Shown here: positions 1-6,212 of the stretch, piece by piece
Layout: each line of letters begins with the position of its first letter
Position numbering within the stretch: the stretch's first letter is position 1
Source of the DNA: a virus
Taxonomy: Duplodnaviria > Heunggongvirae > Uroviricota > Caudoviricetes
IMG/VR virus record: IMGVR_UViG_2778261674_000013
DNA length: 6,212 nucleotides
Direction: 5' to 3' (one strand)
Program-made: the position numbers and the translations under genes
Notes under the pieces: generated by a model
What the model was told of the DNA's origin: nothing
Database searches by the model: none
What the model saw: only the letters and a program-made list of their open reading frames with translations

Positions 1-3
1 GTG

Positions 4-24
4 GGATATTCTGAAAGAATATCC
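4..24. repeat. Perfect 9-bp inverted repeat GGATATTCT-gaa-AGAATATCC at the window edge
   Basis: Seen directly: 4-12 is the reverse complement of 16-24, with a 3-nt spacer. Function unknown (hairpin or dimeric binding site). Confidence 0.3.
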
Positions 25-252
25 ATAATGTGGAGAGAATCTATTGAAGTGCATGGTGCCGGGTGCCTCCCGGTGAATTCAGTACCAGCACCTGAATCCG
101 CGATTATCCCATATACCTACTCGCTGATTGCCCCTCCGCACAGGGGGATTCACCATGCCAGTTTCTTTTAACAAACTCCCCGCAAACCAGAGAACAGTCA
201 ACCGCCTGAATTGTGAAGTATTTAAAAATTTCTCCCGCTAACTGATACCCGG

Positions 253-339
253 CTAACAGTCTGGCGTTTTCTTTTTCAGCAACGGGAAAGCAACAACCAC
301 CACACCCGCCACCAGCACACCGTCAGCCAGCACTGACAT
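253..339 (-). CDS. Possible small hydrophobic peptide (28 aa, MSVLADGVLVAGVVVVAFPLLKKKTPDC)
   Basis: ATG at 339-337, stop at 255-253. Hydrophobic core followed by a KKK cluster, like a single-pass membrane peptide. No convincing Shine-Dalgarno; could be a chance ORF. Confidence 0.12.
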   Translation of the reverse strand: MSVLADGVLVAGVVVVAFPLLKKKTPDC

Positions 340-419
340 TATCCGGCTGCTGCAATGCCATTCACAAAAACAGTAAGCAATCACTTTTTACCGTAACAGG
401 TGATAATCCAGATATGTAT

Positions 420-773
420 CTACCCCAGATGAGTAATCCGAAGTTCATCCATACCACAGGTCCTGGCTATTCTGTTGTACTCCTGAACAAGAGCAAATAA
501 TTCTGAATTAGCAACCATGAACTCATCGCAAACCCTCTGTATAGCATCACTATTCAGAATAATAACGTCTCTTCCCGAAAGACGATCAGGAGTACAGAAC
601 AAAACTGTCAAACGGCTGAAGGCCTTTGCTCGTGCTGCATTGACTATATCAATACGCTGCCTAAGGATGAAACACCCCGACGCCTCATCAATATTCACTC
701 TACCCACACCATATGAATGATAAATATTTAATGCTGAAAAAACTATTAGACCGTATAACAAACACTCAATCAA
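420..773 (-). CDS. Hypothetical protein (up to 117 aa) in the cargo slot downstream of the phage tRNAs
   Basis: Longest ORF in this interval, same orientation as the late operon. The upstream-most start is TTG with no obvious RBS, and the first in-frame ATG is at residue 86, so the true start is uncertain. No recognisable motif. Confidence 0.3.
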   Translation of the reverse strand: MIECLLYGLIVFSALNIYHSYGVGRVNIDEASGCFILRQRIDIVNAARAKAFSRLTVLFCTPDRLSGRDVIILNSDAIQRVCDEFMVANSELFALVQEYNRIARTCGMDELRITHLG

Positions 774-883
774 TACTTAACAGAACTTTTATTTTTGACA
801 AACATATTATGTTTTCAACAATATCCTGAGCCAGGTATATTCCAGTATAAGGCTCTGCCGGAAGGAATCTGGAAGAATGAATA

Positions 884-960
884 TGGCGCGCTGTACTGGA
901 TTCGAACCAGTGACCGATTGCTTAGAAGGCAATTGCTCTGTCCGGCTGAGCTAACAACGC
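884..960 (-). tRNA. tRNA-Arg (anticodon UCU), phage-borne rare-codon tRNA
   Basis: Reverse complement folds as a 77-nt cloverleaf: acceptor GCGTTGT/ACAGCGC, D-stem GCTC/GAGC, anticodon stem ATTGC/GCAAT, loop CTTCTAA (U33, anticodon TCT, A37), T-arm ACTGG-TTCGAAT-CCAGT, discriminator G, encoded CCA. Resembles the argN/argO class of Stx-phage tRNAs. Confidence 0.85.
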
Positions 961-994
961 TGAATACCGATAATGGACCGCCATCGGGGACCCG

Positions 995-1003
995 CCCCCC
1001 CCC
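995..1003. repeat. C9 homopolymer (G9 on the transcribed minus strand) between the two tRNA genes
   Basis: Seen directly: nine consecutive C within gacccgCCCCCCCCCgcacc. Confidence 0.9.
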
Positions 1004-1064
1004 GCACCAACAACCCTGTTATCGTGTCGTCTGCTCTTCCTGATAAGCTCATGGCGGTTTGTGA

Positions 1065-1140
1065 TGGTGGCCCTTGCTGGATTTGAACCAGCGACCTGGC
1101 GATTATGAGTCGCTCGCTCTCACCACTGAGCTAAAGGACC
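1065..1140 (-). tRNA. tRNA-Ile2 (anticodon CAU, lysidine type; formally could be read as Met)
   Basis: Reverse complement GGTCCTTTAGCTCAGTGGTGAGAGCGAGCGACTCATAATCGCCAGGTCGCTGGTTCAAATCCAGCAAGGGCCACCA is a 76-nt cloverleaf with anticodon loop CTCATAA. From memory it is very close to E. coli ileX (tRNA-Ile2) and to the ileZ class of Stx-phage tRNAs. One A-C mismatch closes the anticodon stem. Confidence 0.8.
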
Positions 1141-1176
1141 GGGAGCAGAATAATAACGGTCCGTAATTAATTCCGC

Positions 1177-1203
1177 AATAAAAAACCCGCTCGGTGGCGG
1201 GTT
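1177..1203 (-). terminator. Rho-independent terminator, tR'-like (ends the short late leader transcript)
   Basis: Minus strand reads AACCCGC-CACCGA-GCGGGTT followed by TTTTTTATT. GC-rich stem plus U-tract, about 40 nt downstream of the putative late promoter. Confidence 0.6.
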
Positions 1204-1250
1204 GTAGAAACTCTTCTAACGTCAGGCATAAAACGCCCATCGTTATGACG

Positions 1251-1278
1251 AATTTACCACAGATTCCGGAAAAATCAA
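1251..1278 (-). promoter_or_regulatory. Putative Q-dependent late promoter (pR'-like) with extended -10
   Basis: Minus strand: -35 TTGATT (1278-1273), 16-nt spacer ending in TGG, -10 TAAATT (1256-1251). It lies immediately after the Q stop codon and before the terminator, matching the lambda Q-pR'-tR' layout. Confidence 0.5.
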
Positions 1279-1283
1279 CCTTG

Positions 1284-2105
1284 TTACCTAGTTACCTTTT
1301 TTAACTGCCGCTCAGCCCATGCTTCTTCAATATCAAACCGGGTCACCAGCGCATCATAGAATTTCTTAACTGTTTTTTCCCATGACGCGCGTGTTATCTG
1401 GTTTGTCACCTCGCATATAGCATTAAATGCCTCCGTTGATGGTAGTCTTTCATAGCCCCGACCACCACAACGCTGGCAGTCTCTGATAACAGGCATACCA
1501 CGTTTTACCGACTCTTCACGGTGAATGGCGACACCACGCCCACGGCAATCCTTACAGGCGGTGGAAACCTCACCCTTTCCGCCACACTCCGGACAGGCAA
1601 CTTTTACCACCTCCCTGACTTTTTTCCATTCTTCCCAGTAAGACGGATACACACCTTTCGTACACTTTGCCCATACCGGCGGCTTACCATCCGGATACTG
1701 GACCTTGTTTGTAAAAACTACGCTTTCAATAAATTTTTCCCCATAGCAACAAGGGCACTGCTTTTTACTCGCTGCGCTGCGGGCATAATCCTCAAAAGCG
1801 TACGAAGCCATAATGCGCATCACTAACGGTTTTATTTCTGCCGGAAGTTTTCTCAACGCCGCCACACGATCGCACCGACTGAGTGCATAATCTGCCAGTA
1901 ATTCTGTTGCCCGCGCCCTGTCATTCATACTGATGCCCATTTTCCCCAGGAACGCAGAAAACCCCATCTCAGCTCGATTCTGTGTCATGCCCTGCGCGGC
2001 CATCACATCAGTGATACTCAGCGCATCTTTTGACGTTGAGGCCGATGCATCGATCAGGCAAGGGGATTTTGGGGAGTAGTATTTCGGTAAATCTTCCAGT
2101 TTCAT
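1284..2105 (-). CDS. Late-gene antitermination protein Q-like (273 aa), zinc-ribbon rich
   Basis: ATG start overlaps the RusA stop (ATGA). Several Cys pairs (CPCC, CPECGG, CKDCRG, CQRCGG). N-terminus MKLEDLPKYYSPKSP and overall layout match what I recall of the Qin-type Q protein (QuuQ/YdfT family). Synteny rusA-Q-pR'-tR' supports the call. Confidence 0.7.
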   Translation of the reverse strand: MKLEDLPKYYSPKSPCLIDASASTSKDALSITDVMAAQGMTQNRAEMGFSAFLGKMGISMNDRARATELLADYALSRCDRVAALRKLPAEIKPLVMRIMASYAFEDYARSAASKKQCPCCYGEKFIESVVFTNKVQYPDGKPPVWAKCTKGVYPSYWEEWKKVREVVKVACPECGGKGEVSTACKDCRGRGVAIHREESVKRGMPVIRDCQRCGGRGYERLPSTEAFNAICEVTNQITRASWEKTVKKFYDALVTRFDIEEAWAERQLKKVTR

Positions 2106-2476
2106 TTTTTGACCTGCTCTTCATGCATTATGGGGTAAATCTTCACCCCCATACGTCCACCAGATACTGGCTGACCACGAACGATATTGATTTCATCAAA
2201 CTGCTCATCGTCCATTAACACTCCCGCATGCGTCAGCGCATCCAGCGGTGCTTTCAGGATATTGTCCAGGTCGCGACGACGCTTATCCGGTGGCTCTGCA
2301 ATCACCTTTATCGCCAGCCTTCCGGACAGGCTTAATTTCAGCCGCTGCTGGCGAACAATAAGCGCCACAGCCCGGCGATAACGCTTTCCCTCCTCCGAGA
2401 TAAAATATGTGCTGCCACGGCGTCGCCAGTAAGTGTTCACCGTCGGCGGGTAAGGTAAAACCAAATCTATGAGCAT
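2102..2476 (-). CDS. rusA: Holliday-junction resolvase RusA (crossover junction endodeoxyribonuclease), 124 aa
   Basis: Motifs LPYPPTVNTYWRRR and PDKRRRDLDNILKAPLDALTHAGVLMDDEQ match the RusA family. RBS AGAGGTGA precedes the ATG at 2476-2474. Confidence 0.85.
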   Translation of the reverse strand: MLIDLVLPYPPTVNTYWRRRGSTYFISEEGKRYRRAVALIVRQQRLKLSLSGRLAIKVIAEPPDKRRRDLDNILKAPLDALTHAGVLMDDEQFDEINIVRGQPVSGGRMGVKIYPIMHEEQVKK

Positions 2477-2488
2477 CAGTCACCTCTT

Positions 2489-3538
2489 TTACCCAAGCAC
2501 GCCAGTTGCAAAGGCGTGATCAAGAAAACGAAAGATTAAATCAACCTGAGAACCATGCTTTTCTTCGAACGCCAGAGGATCCGCATGAAGCTCGTTGTGA
2601 TGCTCCCGACACAGCGGTAGCGTGAAAATATCGTGAGATTTTGTCCCCATTCCGCCCTGACCATGACCAATCAGGTGATGGGGATCGTCGGCTGGCTTAC
2701 CACAACACGCACACGGCTGTGTCTTCACCCAGCGTGTGTATTTCTCGTTAACCCAGCGGCGACGTTTAGGTCGTTTCATGAAAGATTCCGGAGACTCAGG
2801 ATCAACGGCAATGCTGACCACCGTCTTTTCCTGTGGTGGGTTCTGTTGCTGGTGGGCGTGAGGCAGCGGCGCAAGATTTTTTGTGCGCTGTTTCAGTATG
2901 CTGGTGGCGGTCTGCTCTCCCGGTACGATGTCGCTTTCACGGTACATTGAGCGGATTTTTTCCGCACGCAACCCCAGCGAACGACGTAATACCGCTTCCG
3001 GTAGCGCGTCCGCCACCTGATTGCGGACCGCCCACCAGGATAATTCAGCCAGCGATAATTCCCGCTCCTGTGTGCCATTCATTGCGTGACGAATGACGTC
3101 AATCATCCATGCTGACAAGTTTTGGTGAGCAAGTTGCTCAAGTGATTCGGAGGTCTGGTCACGCAACTGGTTGTCGCAGTGCCAGCACAACACCATTGCG
3201 CCGGTACCATAACGGTGAATGACGGTTTCACTATGGTGATAATCGCCGTGTGGCCACTGGCAGGATTTAACATGGCGCAGTAACCAGTCAGACAATGCGC
3301 CAGCGCCACCAGCAGCACGAATCACTCGTTCGTCGCTGAAAAATGGCAGTAATGATTTATCCTCCGCCAGCGGCTGGCGAACGGCAGGAACGACCCCGGA
3401 CGGCAGATTACGCATGCTTTTCGGTTCCGGCTCCACCAGTACCCGGGTATTGTGGAATACCGGCATGGATTCACGGCCCGGCTTAACGATCACCAGCCCG
3501 AGTTCCGGTACCAGAACAGGTCGAAGTAATACCCGCAC
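2489..3538 (-). CDS. DUF968-family protein with C-terminal HNH-like Cys/His motif (YdfU-like), 349 aa
   Basis: C-terminus CACCGKPADDPHHLIGHGQGGMGTKSHDIFTLPLCREHHNELHA is typical of prophage DUF968 proteins. GTG start at 3538-3536 is preceded by GGAGGT at ideal spacing and sits one base after the upstream ORF's stop. Confidence 0.75.
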   Translation of the reverse strand: MRVLLRPVLVPELGLVIVKPGRESMPVFHNTRVLVEPEPKSMRNLPSGVVPAVRQPLAEDKSLLPFFSDERVIRAAGGAGALSDWLLRHVKSCQWPHGDYHHSETVIHRYGTGAMVLCWHCDNQLRDQTSESLEQLAHQNLSAWMIDVIRHAMNGTQERELSLAELSWWAVRNQVADALPEAVLRRSLGLRAEKIRSMYRESDIVPGEQTATSILKQRTKNLAPLPHAHQQQNPPQEKTVVSIAVDPESPESFMKRPKRRRWVNEKYTRWVKTQPCACCGKPADDPHHLIGHGQGGMGTKSHDIFTLPLCREHHNELHADPLAFEEKHGSQVDLIFRFLDHAFATGVLG

Positions 3539-3539
3539 G

Positions 3540-3818
3540 TTACCTCCAGATGCGTTGCTGGAATGTGCGGGACGGACGCGGTGGGCGTTCGGAGTAAGGA
3601 AGCCTGACGGAGATTATCCAGTGACGGTAGTCGAGGCTAAGGGCTTTTTTAACCTCGTATCCGCGCCTGCGGTAACACTGAATTATCCATTCAGCCTGCT
3701 CTTCAGTGCATGGTGGATGCTGGAACCAGTCCGATTTGAATGCATGAAAACGCCGTCCGCACCTACTGGCAAAGACGGCAGAATCATCAGAATTATGTAA
3801 TTTGGTATCGTGCGCCAT
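3540..3818 (-). CDS. Hypothetical phage protein (92 aa from the internal ATG; the ORF extends to 3929 for 129 aa)
   Basis: Open frame ends 1 nt before the DUF968 start. Neither candidate start has a strong RBS (GAGA before 3818). The N-terminal extension is W/Y/F-rich and may not be coding. Occupies the position Rem has in Qin; sequence not recognised. Confidence 0.4.
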   Translation of the reverse strand: MAHDTKLHNSDDSAVFASRCGRRFHAFKSDWFQHPPCTEEQAEWIIQCYRRRGYEVKKALSLDYRHWIISVRLPYSERPPRPSRTFQQRIWR

Positions 3819-4083
3819 CGGTTGTCTCTGCTGGCGCAGCAGGTGCCAGTTGTTCAGGCTGGCGTATAAAGTATAAATAAACTGGTTCCAGTGTAAAGCC
3901 CCTACATTAATGGAATAAAAGTCAAACAACAGATTGCTGGGATAAACACAACGCTTATTATTAAAAGCGATTAGATAAATTAAATTTTAATGTTATGCAA
4001 TTTTACCAGAACACCATAACATCTCGTTTGAAACCACCGAAACAACAACCATATCAATATTGATTATGTTAAAGTGAGTAAAT

Positions 4084-4170
4084 ATGGAAAACAACAAATC
4101 TGCACATTACGCTCCTTTTTTATCTGTGATACTTTTTGTTTTATGCTGTGTGTGGGCATTATTTTTATAA
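4084..4170 (+). CDS. Possible small hydrophobic peptide (28 aa, MENNKSAHYAPFLSVILFVLCCVWALFL), convergent with hok
   Basis: ATG with a weak GTGAG upstream. Single hydrophobic stretch. No homology known to me; may be a chance ORF in AT-rich spacer. Confidence 0.15.
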   Translation: MENNKSAHYAPFLSVILFVLCCVWALFL

Positions 4171-4179
4171 AAATATTTA

Positions 4180-4208
4180 CAGATAAAATAAACCCGCCGA
4201 AGCGGGTT
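4180..4208 (-). terminator. Rho-independent terminator downstream of hok (UUCG tetraloop hairpin)
   Basis: Minus strand reads AACCCGC-TTCG-GCGGGTT followed by TATTTTATCT. The stem is the same as in the tR'-like terminator. Confidence 0.6.
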
Positions 4209-4247
4209 AAGCGCGGGTGCGTTGAGGATGCCTGACACATCAGAGGC

Positions 4248-4269
4248 GGCGAGGGATTTCTCCCTCGCC
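4248..4269 (-). other. Perfect 9-bp stem / 4-nt loop hairpin immediately 3' of the hok stop codon (possible mRNA 3' fold-back or processing element)
   Basis: Seen directly: GGCGAGGGA-tttc-TCCCTCGCC. No U-tract follows on either strand. Confidence 0.4.
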
Positions 4270-4276
4270 AAGTCTC

Positions 4277-4432
4277 TTACTCCTCAGGTTCGTAGACTGT
4301 GAAGACAGCGACCTCCATCTGGCCGGTTCGGATTCGTACCTCGCAGAGGTCTTTCCTCGTTACCAGTGCCGTCACTATGACGGTTAAACAGATGACGATC
4401 AGGGCGATTAACATCGCCTTTTGCTGCTTCAT
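4277..4432 (-). CDS. hokD: Hok/Gef-family type I membrane toxin (51 aa), HokD/RelF-like
   Basis: Protein MKQQKAMLIALIVICLTVIVTALVTRKDLCEVRIRTGQMEVAVFTVYEPEE is near-identical to E. coli HokD (RelF) as I recall it. Strong RBS AAGGAGAA sits 7 nt before the ATG. The ORF also extends in frame to an ATG at 4489. Confidence 0.85.
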   Translation of the reverse strand: MKQQKAMLIALIVICLTVIVTALVTRKDLCEVRIRTGQMEVAVFTVYEPEE

Positions 4433-4939
4433 AGCCTGCTTCTCCTTGCCTTTCGGCACGTAAGAGGCTAACCTACATGTGCAAAGCATGAAATTGGCCT
4501 CAGATTAATGTTAAGCGTCTTGCCGGACGCGTAATGTTAACTGGGGCTTTTCTCTATCTGCCTTTGGTGTTCATGCCTGAGACAGATAGCCTCAAGCACC
4601 CGCAGCCATTGTACTTAACTCCCGTTACCTCGCCAATATAAAATCAATCAGAAAGGCGATCCATAAGGACAATAGCAAGACAATAAATTGCCATTACCCG
4701 CAATAGCCAGCGCACATTTGAGGACCAGCACGACAACTTTCTGTATCGGACGTACACCAGTCCTGATAAATACAAGGCGGTCTCATCAGTGATGAGATGC
4801 AACTATTGAGTACAGTTTCTCTGATTTTTCTGTAAAACATGGAACACAACAACTAAATATAACTAGCACTTCTTAAGATGTACAAATTCAGAGTTAAGAT
4901 AACGTAAGCAGTTTTCTCAAAACTAAGTGTAAATTTTTA

Positions 4940-5056
4940 ATGAAGAGCAGTGCTATGCTCCTGATCATAAATTCATTGTTTGGAACTGGAGGAATATTTA
5001 GGTTGCTGGAGTGGTTGGTTGAATTTAAATCAACTAAGACAAAAACCAACAATTAA
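4940..5056 (+). CDS. Possible small protein (38 aa, MKSSAMLLIINSLFGTGGIFRLLEWLVEFKSTKTKTNN) in AT-rich spacer
   Basis: Hydrophobic N-terminal half and lysine-rich tail, like a small membrane peptide. No clear RBS; AT-rich DNA generates such ORFs by chance. Confidence 0.1.
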   Translation: MKSSAMLLIINSLFGTGGIFRLLEWLVEFKSTKTKTNN

Positions 5057-5246
5057 AGATATGTGGTATATCAGAAAACAACTATCCGTATATTACTACA
5101 GAATTAAATACTAGCAACAAAGCTGTCTTTATTGATTTTTTATTTGATATCGAAACAAATAAACATAAAATAACCAACTAATTAAAACAGAGACTCGACA
5201 ATGAGCCTCTATCTATTGTAACAGCACTTCCAAATTTATTTTAGTA

Positions 5247-5266
5247 AGATAATAGCATGGGGCATA
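5247..5266. terminator. GC-rich hairpin (7-bp stem ATGGGGC/GCCCCAT, 6-nt loop) just 3' of the 266-aa ORF; possible bidirectional terminator
   Basis: Seen directly. Plus strand follows with CTTTTAAA; minus strand follows with GCTATTATCT. It stands out as a GC-rich stem in AT-rich DNA. Confidence 0.45.
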
Positions 5267-5279
5267 CTAGCCCCATCTT

Positions 5280-6080
5280 TTAAACCGTTTCATCAAGGAA
5301 ATACTTAGACGAATCATCCTGTTTCGGTTGATATGTTTTTTTTGCAGAATTAAGAACTCTTCTTAGTTCTTTTCTTAACTCAGGTAAACGCTCCTGAAGA
5401 GGGTTAGAACACCATTGTGAAGGCAACCCTCTTATAATAGCTTCGGAACAAAGCGGTGAAATAAGTTTTTCCATTTGATAATAGAAAGTTTTTGCTCGAC
5501 TTACACGCATTGTGATCCTTTTTATTACATCTCTTTCAGACTCAATTCTAGCACTCAGATCTCTTAATCTACTCCATACCTTAGCATCAGCAATATATGT
5601 ATCATAAAGCATACACTCTATAAACGTGAAATTACTAATAAGTTCTTTTGCAATATACCCCCCCAGCCGAGAAGGAATGAAACTTGATGAAGCTGTTGGA
5701 TCTCCGTGATTTACGGTGAACAAAAACCTTTTATTGCATAAATCAACGAGAACTCGATGCGTGAAAGAGTCACCTATACCAATTAACCTTAACTTTTCAG
5801 TTATTACCGAACCATCGATTTGTCTGAATCCGGGATCGCTTGCATACGAAACGATAACATTAAGAATGTACAGCCTCAATAATTGCATTTGTGTCACAGC
5901 TAAATTCGAATCAAACGGGTTCGCAATAGTCGACGTTGACTCGCTATAAGTCAACTCAGTACCCAGTAATATAGCTCTAAATGCCTCATGACGTGGAAGA
6001 AGATACCTTCCTTGTTCTCTGAAAATTTGTACTGCTTTACCTGGACTCGTATACCCTCTTTCTAAGAACTCACGAGTCAT
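5280..6080 (-). CDS. Uncharacterised protein (266 aa) in the AT-rich cargo segment; candidate accessory, defence or toxin gene
   Basis: Long ATG-initiated ORF with no internal alternative start for about 60 codons. By eye it is clearly more AT-rich than the adjacent prophage core (not computed). Protein has no motif I can assign confidently: no HExxH, no canonical Walker A, no HNH. Confidence 0.6.
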   Translation of the reverse strand: MTREFLERGYTSPGKAVQIFREQGRYLLPRHEAFRAILLGTELTYSESTSTIANPFDSNLAVTQMQLLRLYILNVIVSYASDPGFRQIDGSVITEKLRLIGIGDSFTHRVLVDLCNKRFLFTVNHGDPTASSSFIPSRLGGYIAKELISNFTFIECMLYDTYIADAKVWSRLRDLSARIESERDVIKRITMRVSRAKTFYYQMEKLISPLCSEAIIRGLPSQWCSNPLQERLPELRKELRRVLNSAKKTYQPKQDDSSKYFLDETV

Positions 6081-6101
6081 ACGTAATGCTGATGAATCCC
6101 C

Positions 6102-6125
6102 TAATGATTTTTATCAAAATCATTA
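6102..6125. promoter_or_regulatory. Perfect 10-bp inverted repeat TAATGATTTT-tatc-AAAATCATTA, 22-45 bp upstream of the 266-aa ORF start; candidate operator
   Basis: Seen directly. The AT-rich palindrome is a poor terminator stem, so a dimeric regulator site is more plausible. Confidence 0.3.
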
Positions 6126-6139
6126 AGTTAAGGTAGATA

Positions 6140-6200
6140 CACATCTTGTCATATGATCAAATGGTTTCGCGAAAAATCAATAATCAGACAACAAGATGTG
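6140..6200. repeat. Nested palindrome: 10-bp arms CACATCTTGT / ACAAGATGTG around a central TTTCGCGAAA palindrome, same centre
   Basis: Seen directly: 6140-6149 is the reverse complement of 6191-6200, and the central 10-bp palindrome at 6165-6174 shares the centre near 6169/6170. Confidence 0.4.
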
Positions 6201-6212
6201 CGAACTCGATAT

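Follow-up and report, generated by a model that had tools for sequence, protein, structure and literature searches.

We analyzed a 6,212-nucleotide (nt) stretch of DNA from the IMG/VR virus record IMGVR_UViG_2778261674_000013 (Caudoviricetes), here called the window, and focused on a module at positions 884 to 1286. The borders of this 403-nt module coincide exactly with the 3′ end of the second of two tRNA genes and with the stop codon of a Q antiterminator gene; the whole feature set lies on the minus strand and reads from high to low coordinates. In this direction, the Q gene is followed by a late promoter (pR′), a short leader, an intrinsic terminator (tR′), tRNA-Ile2(CAU), and tRNA-Arg(UCU). 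The original prediction, made from the sequence letters, had listed the same features and compared their order to that found upstream of stx in Shiga toxin (Stx) phages. All listed features were present, and the homology of the parts bore out both the order and the Stx-like core layout. Less successful were the statement that no remnant of a third tRNA is visible and the placing of the tRNAs under Q-dependent late transcription, if this is taken to mean Q alone and a service to the late genes. Sequence identity and homology were established for every part, and codons were counted in addition.

The Q gene (1284..2105, minus strand) encodes a protein of 273 amino acids (aa) and ends with TAA at 1286..1284. 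Its product matched PF03589 (antitermination protein Q; Pfam, E 2.6e-55), and residues 1-113 and 182-273 aligned with the lambda Q structure PDB 7ubm_Q (phmmer, E 3.3e-40); the two matches place the protein in the lambda Q family. Compared to lambda Q, a Cys-rich insertion of ~68 aa follows residue 113 (residues 114-181; window 1764-1967, minus strand). It carries the CxxC motifs CPCC and CPEC and is placed exactly at the junction of the Q body and the DNA-contacting zinc-ribbon arm, as judged from the published residue ranges of lambda Q, including the start of the arm zinc ribbon (PMC9388147). The likeness to Stx phages holds for this gene only in part: its family differs from that of the Q protein of 933W-type phages (PF06530, 144 aa), but the protein is 91% identical at the aa level to quuQ of the Stx2a phage Stx2_EH1910 (LC567834), which has the same ~68-aa insertion. 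For comparison with relatives, 80 IMG/VR loci were retrieved whose Q is the same at 94-100% identity.

The Q stop codon lies 5 nt upstream of the −35 hexamer of pR′, so that a gene of the lambda Q family directly precedes the late promoter. On the minus strand, the stop codon is followed by the −35 hexamer TTGATT (1273..1278), a 16-nt spacer, the extended −10 element TGGTAAATT (TG-G-TAAATT, 1251..1259, with TG at 1259..1258 and the hexamer TAAATT at 1256..1251), CGTCAT, and the 9-nt motif AACGATGGG (1244..1236). Lambda pR′ consists of TTGACT at the same position, 17 nt, TAAATT, TGACTC, and AACGATGGG. The block GGTAAATT-N6-AACGATGGG, i.e., the −10 hexamer, a 6-nt gap, and the 9-nt motif (17 specified bases), is therefore exactly as in lambda. 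Since the spacer is one base shorter than that of lambda, the TG falls at −15/−14 and yields a canonical extended −10, as had been predicted. Transcription would start at 1244, which places the 9-nt motif at +1..+9 (1236..1244), where AACGAT (+1..+6) constitutes a −10-like, putative sigma-dependent pause element (SDPE) that is followed by GGG. In the published lambda cassette (Q gene, PR′, SDPE, terminator, and late genes), AACGAT is the −10-like SDPE and the Q loading site (PMC9388147). Judged by its sequence, the window thus contains a sigma-70 pR′ whose first transcribed bases include a −10-like pause element. As pR′ matches the generic consensus at only 8/12 positions, it was not listed by a generic promoter scan; its support is comparative and lies in the homology to lambda, consensus aside.

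This assignment was examined in 41 distinct leader sequences from 77 loci with this Q. The −35 hexamer TTGATT was present in all variants except two that were 5′ truncated, and the −35, the extended −10, the leader, and the terminator stem were near-invariant. The pause hexamer was found to be a local hotspot with six main variants among near-identical loci (AACGAT, AATGAT, AATAAT, AAAGAT, AACTAT, and AACAAT). It varied almost solely at positions 3-4, while A2, A5, and T6 were fixed in nearly all relatives, as one would expect if the hexamer is −10-like. Some of the variants, e.g., AATAAT, are nearer to the −10 consensus. The pR′ spacer TTTCCGGAATCTGTGG is nearly invariant among the relatives and shows no similarity to the Q-binding element (QBE) of lambda. 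It contains a perfect, almost invariant palindrome, TTCCGGAA (1264-1271, minus strand), which is a candidate Q-binding site, unlike the asymmetric QBE of lambda.

The predicted intrinsic terminator was recovered by a terminator scan and by folding as AACCCGC-CACCGA-GCGGGTT followed by TTTTATT (1177..1203). Its stem (1203..1184) comprises 7 pairs, 5 of them G-C, with a 6-nt loop and the tail TTTTATTGCG. Lysis and structural genes lie downstream in a near-identical genome, and tR′ thus stands between pR′ and the late genes. The pR′-tR′ leader RNA, with both ends predicted (1178..1244, ~66 nt), would be the counterpart of lambda 6S RNA and of StxS. The 68-nt stretch 1244..1177, i.e., the predicted leader plus 1-2 nt, folded with −21.4 kcal/mol (z = −3.1) into three hairpins: one at the 5′ end, a short one in the middle, and that of the terminator with its U-tail. 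Among the 41 variants, the stem CCCGC/GCGGG was kept in nearly all, and the loop was variable; because the stem is almost invariant and variation falls mainly in the loop, covariation argues neither for nor against the hairpin. In more diverged relatives, the leader appeared slightly better conserved than its flanks. A constant production of the leader (1244..1178) in lysogens, acting in trans as an StxS-like small regulatory RNA, is a doubtful proposition. No alignment between the leader and StxS of Sp5/933W-type phages was obtained upstream of the tRNA cassette. A Trp-leader match at 1177..1283 reached 26.8 bits against a cut-off of 41 bits and was rejected as a hairpin/terminator look-alike.

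Both tRNA genes were accepted by ARAGORN and by the Rfam covariance search. The first (1065..1140, minus strand; ARAGORN tRNA(cat); Rfam 69.4 bits, E 4e-14) is of the ileZ type, and the second (884..960, minus strand; ARAGORN tRNA-Arg(tct); 68.0 bits, E 1e-13) is of the argO type. The CAU tRNA was identical to ileZ of a Stx2a phage at 75/76 positions, to K-12 ileX at 67/76, to the elongator metT at 55/77, and to the initiator metZ at only 48/77. The gene is also named tRNA-Ile by the Prokaryotic Genome Annotation Pipeline (PGAP) in E. coli GF3-3 (99.7% identical to the window). By these comparisons, it encodes a tRNA of the Ile2 (lysidine) type and not a tRNA-Met. The pairs C4-G69 and C5-G68, which are determinants for TilS, are present, and its CAU anticodon would be modified to lysidine. 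The UCU tRNA matched argO at 76/77 positions and K-12 argU at 57/77. Each tRNA differs from its Stx-phage copy by a single transition that turns a Watson-Crick pair of the acceptor stem into G-U and keeps the pairing: U3-G70 replaces C3-G70 in the ileZ-type tRNA, and U4-G69 replaces U4-A69 in the argO-type tRNA. The Rfam scores are slightly below those of the Stx2a copies (72.5 and 70.1 bits, respectively). A Plastid-ycf2 match on the plus strand over a tRNA was discarded as an artifact of the tRNA-like structure.

Only two intact tRNAs are present, in agreement with the original prediction; its statement that no remnant of a third is visible was not confirmed. The spacer between ileZ and argO is 104 nt long, which equals the sum of 7 nt, argN (77 nt), and 13 nt in Stx phages, and it aligned with this region from end to end. 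Alignments with Stx-phage argN identified a decayed argN, a pseudo-tRNA-Arg(UCG), at 974..1057 (minus strand). This relic matches argN at 61/84 positions. It keeps CCGCCATGAGCTTATCAGGAAGAGC, which covers the acceptor and D arm, as well as GGGTCCCCGATGGCGGTCCA, which covers the T-stem, acceptor, and CCA, while unrelated sequence and a run of nine G residues (G9, 1003..995) stand in place of the anticodon arm and the T-loop. Rfam returned no match to the relic at E≤1, and the cassette contains no intact tRNA-Arg(UCG). It was also rejected as a functional or intron-bearing tRNA: ARAGORN detected none with the intron option or at thresholds of 70-80%, and the fold was shuffle-like (z = −0.03).

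The state of argN was followed by scanning 1.5 kb after Q in 76 loci with this Q and a locatable Q end. The argN relic was present in 56 of them and an intact argN in 6; ileZ only was found in 4, other tRNA sets in 2, and no tRNA within 1.5 kb in the remaining 8. Four of these 8 loci carry an intact three-tRNA cassette further downstream, which in Stx2_EH1910 lies ~1.7 kb behind Q. In a wider collection of 185 ileZ contexts, 85 showed the two-tRNA variant. The G-run ranged from 4 to 14 residues among otherwise near-identical loci, a spread that may reflect slippage or, in part, homopolymer sequencing error. Even more doubtful than the small-RNA role considered for the leader is an effect of this length-variable run on processing or on read-through from ileZ to argO. 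In 15 IMG/VR loci that share this Q or this ileZ, a different tRNA set was observed after ileZ (Lys(UUU), Thr(UGU), and Gly(UCC)). In view of these differing sets, the position behind ileZ seems to exchange tRNA genes.

The tRNAs form a portable cassette whose boundary is sharply defined. tRNA-free relatives diverge directly after the T-run of tR′, where TTTTTTAT is continued by TGCGG in the window versus GACTG in these relatives, and unrelated contexts, Stx phages among them, gain homology to the window from the same boundary. The 38 nt upstream of ileZ hence travel with the cassette. They contain a promoter-like element (1150..1178, minus strand) that consists of TTGCGG (1178..1173), 17 nt, and TATTAT (1155..1150), with 9 nt remaining before the tRNA. 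The 185 ileZ contexts gave 42 distinct upstream sequences; TATTAT was kept in 40 of these and TTG in nearly all, and the 12 nt further upstream showed a majority of 51%. Primary 5′ ends mapped in enterohemorrhagic E. coli (EHEC) Sakai by differential RNA sequencing (dRNA-seq; Sy et al.) include a start site for the tRNAs between tR′ and stx2AB (PMC7547250). The conserved element, together with the start site in Sakai, indicates that the tRNAs are probably not purely Q dependent. Thus, of the earlier proposal of Q-dependent late transcription, the location of the tRNAs inside the late unit stands, but a dependence on Q alone is unlikely. The support for the cassette promoter is comparative, and we infer its function from this conservation: in lysogens, the cassette would probably fire from its own promoter and be boosted by Q read-through after induction.

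The cassette lies behind Q, pR′, and tR′ and ahead of a cargo slot (188..883, minus strand) that extends from argO to an STnc100-family prophage small RNA (sRNA) gene (1..187, minus strand; Rfam RF02076, 108.9 bits), which is cut by the window end. In the phage Stx2a_WGPS8, STnc100 directly follows stx2B and therefore forms the distal border of the "stx slot," the place of stx2AB in Stx2a phages. No stxA or stxB was found in the slot of the window (883..188), and the locus resembles a Stx phage in layout without being that of a Shiga toxin-converting phage. Instead, the slot holds two open reading frames (ORFs). One is orf117 (420..773, minus strand; phrog_2873), which is of unknown function and is open and conserved at 56% identity; since close relatives are 99-100% identical and thus uninformative about selection, 56%-identical homologues were used for this comparison. 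The other encodes a 43-aa DUF3927/TciB-like membrane peptide (253..384, minus strand; DUF3927 and TciB-like phrog matches) and is the only one of the two that PGAP annotates. The region directly after argO (window 780-883) is AT-rich (~35% GC) with sigma-70-like matches on both strands, and a TTGAAA-16-AAAAAT arrangement was noted at 818..791 (minus strand), just upstream of orf117. No terminator was found after argO in the window, whereas Stx2a phages have a hairpin and a T-run there.

Rare-codon use was counted in an annotated near-identical prophage and in a host control of 22 genes (6915 codons) and is given per 1000 codons. The 15 early/nin genes showed values of 18.1 for AUA, 16.0 for AGA, and 12.1 for AGG, compared to 5.7, 4.5, and 3.9 for the 27 late genes and 3.9, 1.4, and 0.4 for the 22 host genes. 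The sum of AUA, AGA, and AGG amounted to 85 in orf117 versus 72 in stx2A. The excess was concentrated in AT-rich accessory genes, and the lysis region was also enriched; the highest use of AUA (40.8) and AGA (32.4) in the prophage was found in a gene for an 834-aa protein. The capsid and tail-tube genes contained hardly any AUA, AGA, or AGG. This count in the downstream late genes and the cargo ORFs had been proposed with the original prediction. The tRNAs fit a support of foreign AT-rich genes better than that of bulk late proteins, and such a role would be in keeping with an expression that is not dependent on Q alone.

Taken together, the locus is very probably the cassette by which a lambda-like E. 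coli prophage controls its late genes, into which a portable tRNA unit was inserted directly behind the terminator. In the mechanism that we propose, RNA polymerase would start at pR′ (~1244) and would pause when sigma-70 rebinds the −10-like AACGAT at +1..+6. When Q is absent, transcription would terminate at tR′ and yield the ~66-nt leader RNA. When present, the lambda-family Q would load between the −35 and the −10 and render the polymerase terminator resistant, so that the modified polymerase could cross tR′, the tRNAs, the two cargo ORFs, and STnc100 and proceed into the lysis and morphogenesis genes. The tRNAs of the cassette would decode AUA and AGA/AGG, codons that the AT-rich accessory genes of the prophage use in excess.

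Several observations weigh against this interpretation. The QBE is not recognizable; the pR′ spacer is unlike that of lambda, and the 68 aa inserted into Q lie where the DNA-binding arm begins. The promoter-like element of the cassette agrees with the consensus at only 8/12 positions and was not listed by the generic scan. Its conservation stands out only modestly, given that ~81% of the spacer is conserved as well. The top-expressed late genes (capsid and tail tube) barely use rare codons, so that the counts give no sign of a benefit of the tRNAs for late genes; with 6915 codons, the host control is small. The decay of argN and the one G-U change in each surviving tRNA suggest that selection on the cassette is weak. 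The transcriptional steps given above are read from the sequence.

The limited consensus match of the promoter-like element could mean that the tRNAs lack a separate promoter and are made only by Q read-through of tR′, strictly late, to feed the translation of late genes and cargo. Their position 38 nt behind tR′ within the late transcription unit, where Q read-through must cross them, fits such an arrangement. We nevertheless consider it fairly unlikely: the 38 nt upstream of ileZ move into unrelated contexts with TTG-N3-N17-TATTAT kept, a primary start site for the tRNAs is documented in Sakai, and rare-codon demand peaks in accessory and early genes, whose expression precedes Q or does not require it.

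The signs of weak selection would also be expected if the tRNA cassette were a decaying hitchhiker without present benefit that is spread by lambdoid recombination at a recombination-prone junction behind tR′. The dead argN in 56/76 loci and the drift of its G-run, the G-U pairs and slightly lower Rfam scores of the surviving tRNAs, and the loci that carry ileZ alone or have Lys, Thr, or Gly tRNAs swapped in are consistent with such decay. However, ileZ and argO are intact, both changes keep the base pair, and neighboring prophage genes show a strong enrichment of AUA and AGA/AGG. Moreover, the 403-nt module had matches in 3116/5426 complete E. coli genomes, often several per genome, and 1060 genomes contained at least 80% of it. 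A cassette that provides no benefit thus appears improbable. Finally, it is hardly tenable that the promoter-terminator pair, instead of being a Q-controlled switch, matches by chance or belongs to an ordinary small-RNA gene, with the late genes driven from elsewhere: generic counts in 1..2200 were not above those of shuffles (promoters, 4 versus 3.4; terminators, 4 versus 2.2) and a subthreshold Trp-leader match overlaps the pair, but a clear lambda Q homologue lies directly upstream, both the −10 and the pause element agree with lambda, with their spacing fixed, and the whole unit is conserved together with this Q, including in a Stx2a phage.

The preferred reading of the locus, a lambda-type Q switch with an inserted tRNA cassette, agrees with the comparison to known systems. 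The unit shares with the lambda Q/pR′/SDPE/tR′ unit (the 6S RNA unit) a PF03589 Q, TAAATT, AACGATGGG at +1..+9 behind a 6-nt gap, and a terminator before the late genes. It differs from lambda in its spacer, which is of 16 instead of 17 nt and unrelated in sequence (the Q-binding region), in the Cys-rich insertion after residue 113, which lambda Q lacks, and in the tRNAs and cargo between tR′ and the lysis genes. The leader is ~194 nt long in lambda and ~66 nt in the window.

Of the Stx phages, Stx2_EH1910 is a close counterpart, with the order ydfU-rusA-quuQ, pR′, tR′, methylase, ileZ-argN-argO, and stx2AB. It shares the gene order DUF968, RusA, and Q with the window, a pR′/pause/tR′ region that is ~90% identical, and the same tRNA cassette with its promoter-like element. 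In contrast to the window, ~1.7 kb (a hypothetical gene and the DNA methylase) separates tR′ from the cassette, argN is intact, and stx2AB occupies the slot. The 933W/Sp5-type Stx2a phages share the order of the parts (Q933, pR′, StxS/tR′, ileZ-argN-argO, and then stx2AB), near-identical tRNAs, and STnc100 beyond the slot; Stx2a_WGPS8 carries Q, ileZ, argN, argO, stx2A, stx2B, and STnc100 in this order. Apart from the different Q family, they differ by a pR′-tR′ region of 258 nt that did not align with the window, by three intact tRNAs, and by the terminator-like hairpin after argO. For the Stx2a phage of Sakai, pR′ and the 258-nt pR′-tR′ region between Q and the tRNAs are described, and StxS and the separate tRNA start are documented (PMC7547250).

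Near-identical relatives were Escherichia phage mEp460_ev081 (LR597641; 99.0% identical over window 1-2200) and a prophage at the ydfJ/Qin site of E. coli GF3-3 (NZ_CP053259; 99.7% identical over window 1-6096), both with the same two tRNAs and the same spacer. In GF3-3, the module is followed downstream by essD, rrrD, Rz, terminase, portal, capsid, and tail genes. The arrangement is common, all of its parts stem from well-described systems, and it is already known. Its significance beyond correct annotation, i.e., a lambda-family Q switch and a "stx slot" that holds two small unknown ORFs instead of a toxin, is small. Two details are missed by annotation pipelines, namely, the dead argN in the spacer and the portable tRNA block that bears a promoter-like element and starts exactly at the end of tR′. 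The dead argN and the cassette boundary are useful for the typing of lambdoid prophages and for reading RNA sequencing data from lysogens.

The GF3-3 prophage adjoins a truncated ydfJ and carries dicB, DicF, ydfD, and tfaQ. The cryptic prophage Qin of K-12 appears to be related to it, with GF3-3 holding the full-length form. Compared to mEp460_ev081 and GF3-3, the window contains an additional IS10 end (6097-6212; RNA-OUT at 6134-6203, minus strand, 98.8 bits) that interrupts the 834-aa gene upstream. The 266-aa ORF at 5280-6080 represents the C-terminal part of this AT-rich gene (phrog_14719), which is intact in GF3-3. A hokD-type toxin gene (PF01848) with a sok antisense RNA region (RF01794, 115.7 bits) was located at 4277-4601 on the minus strand.

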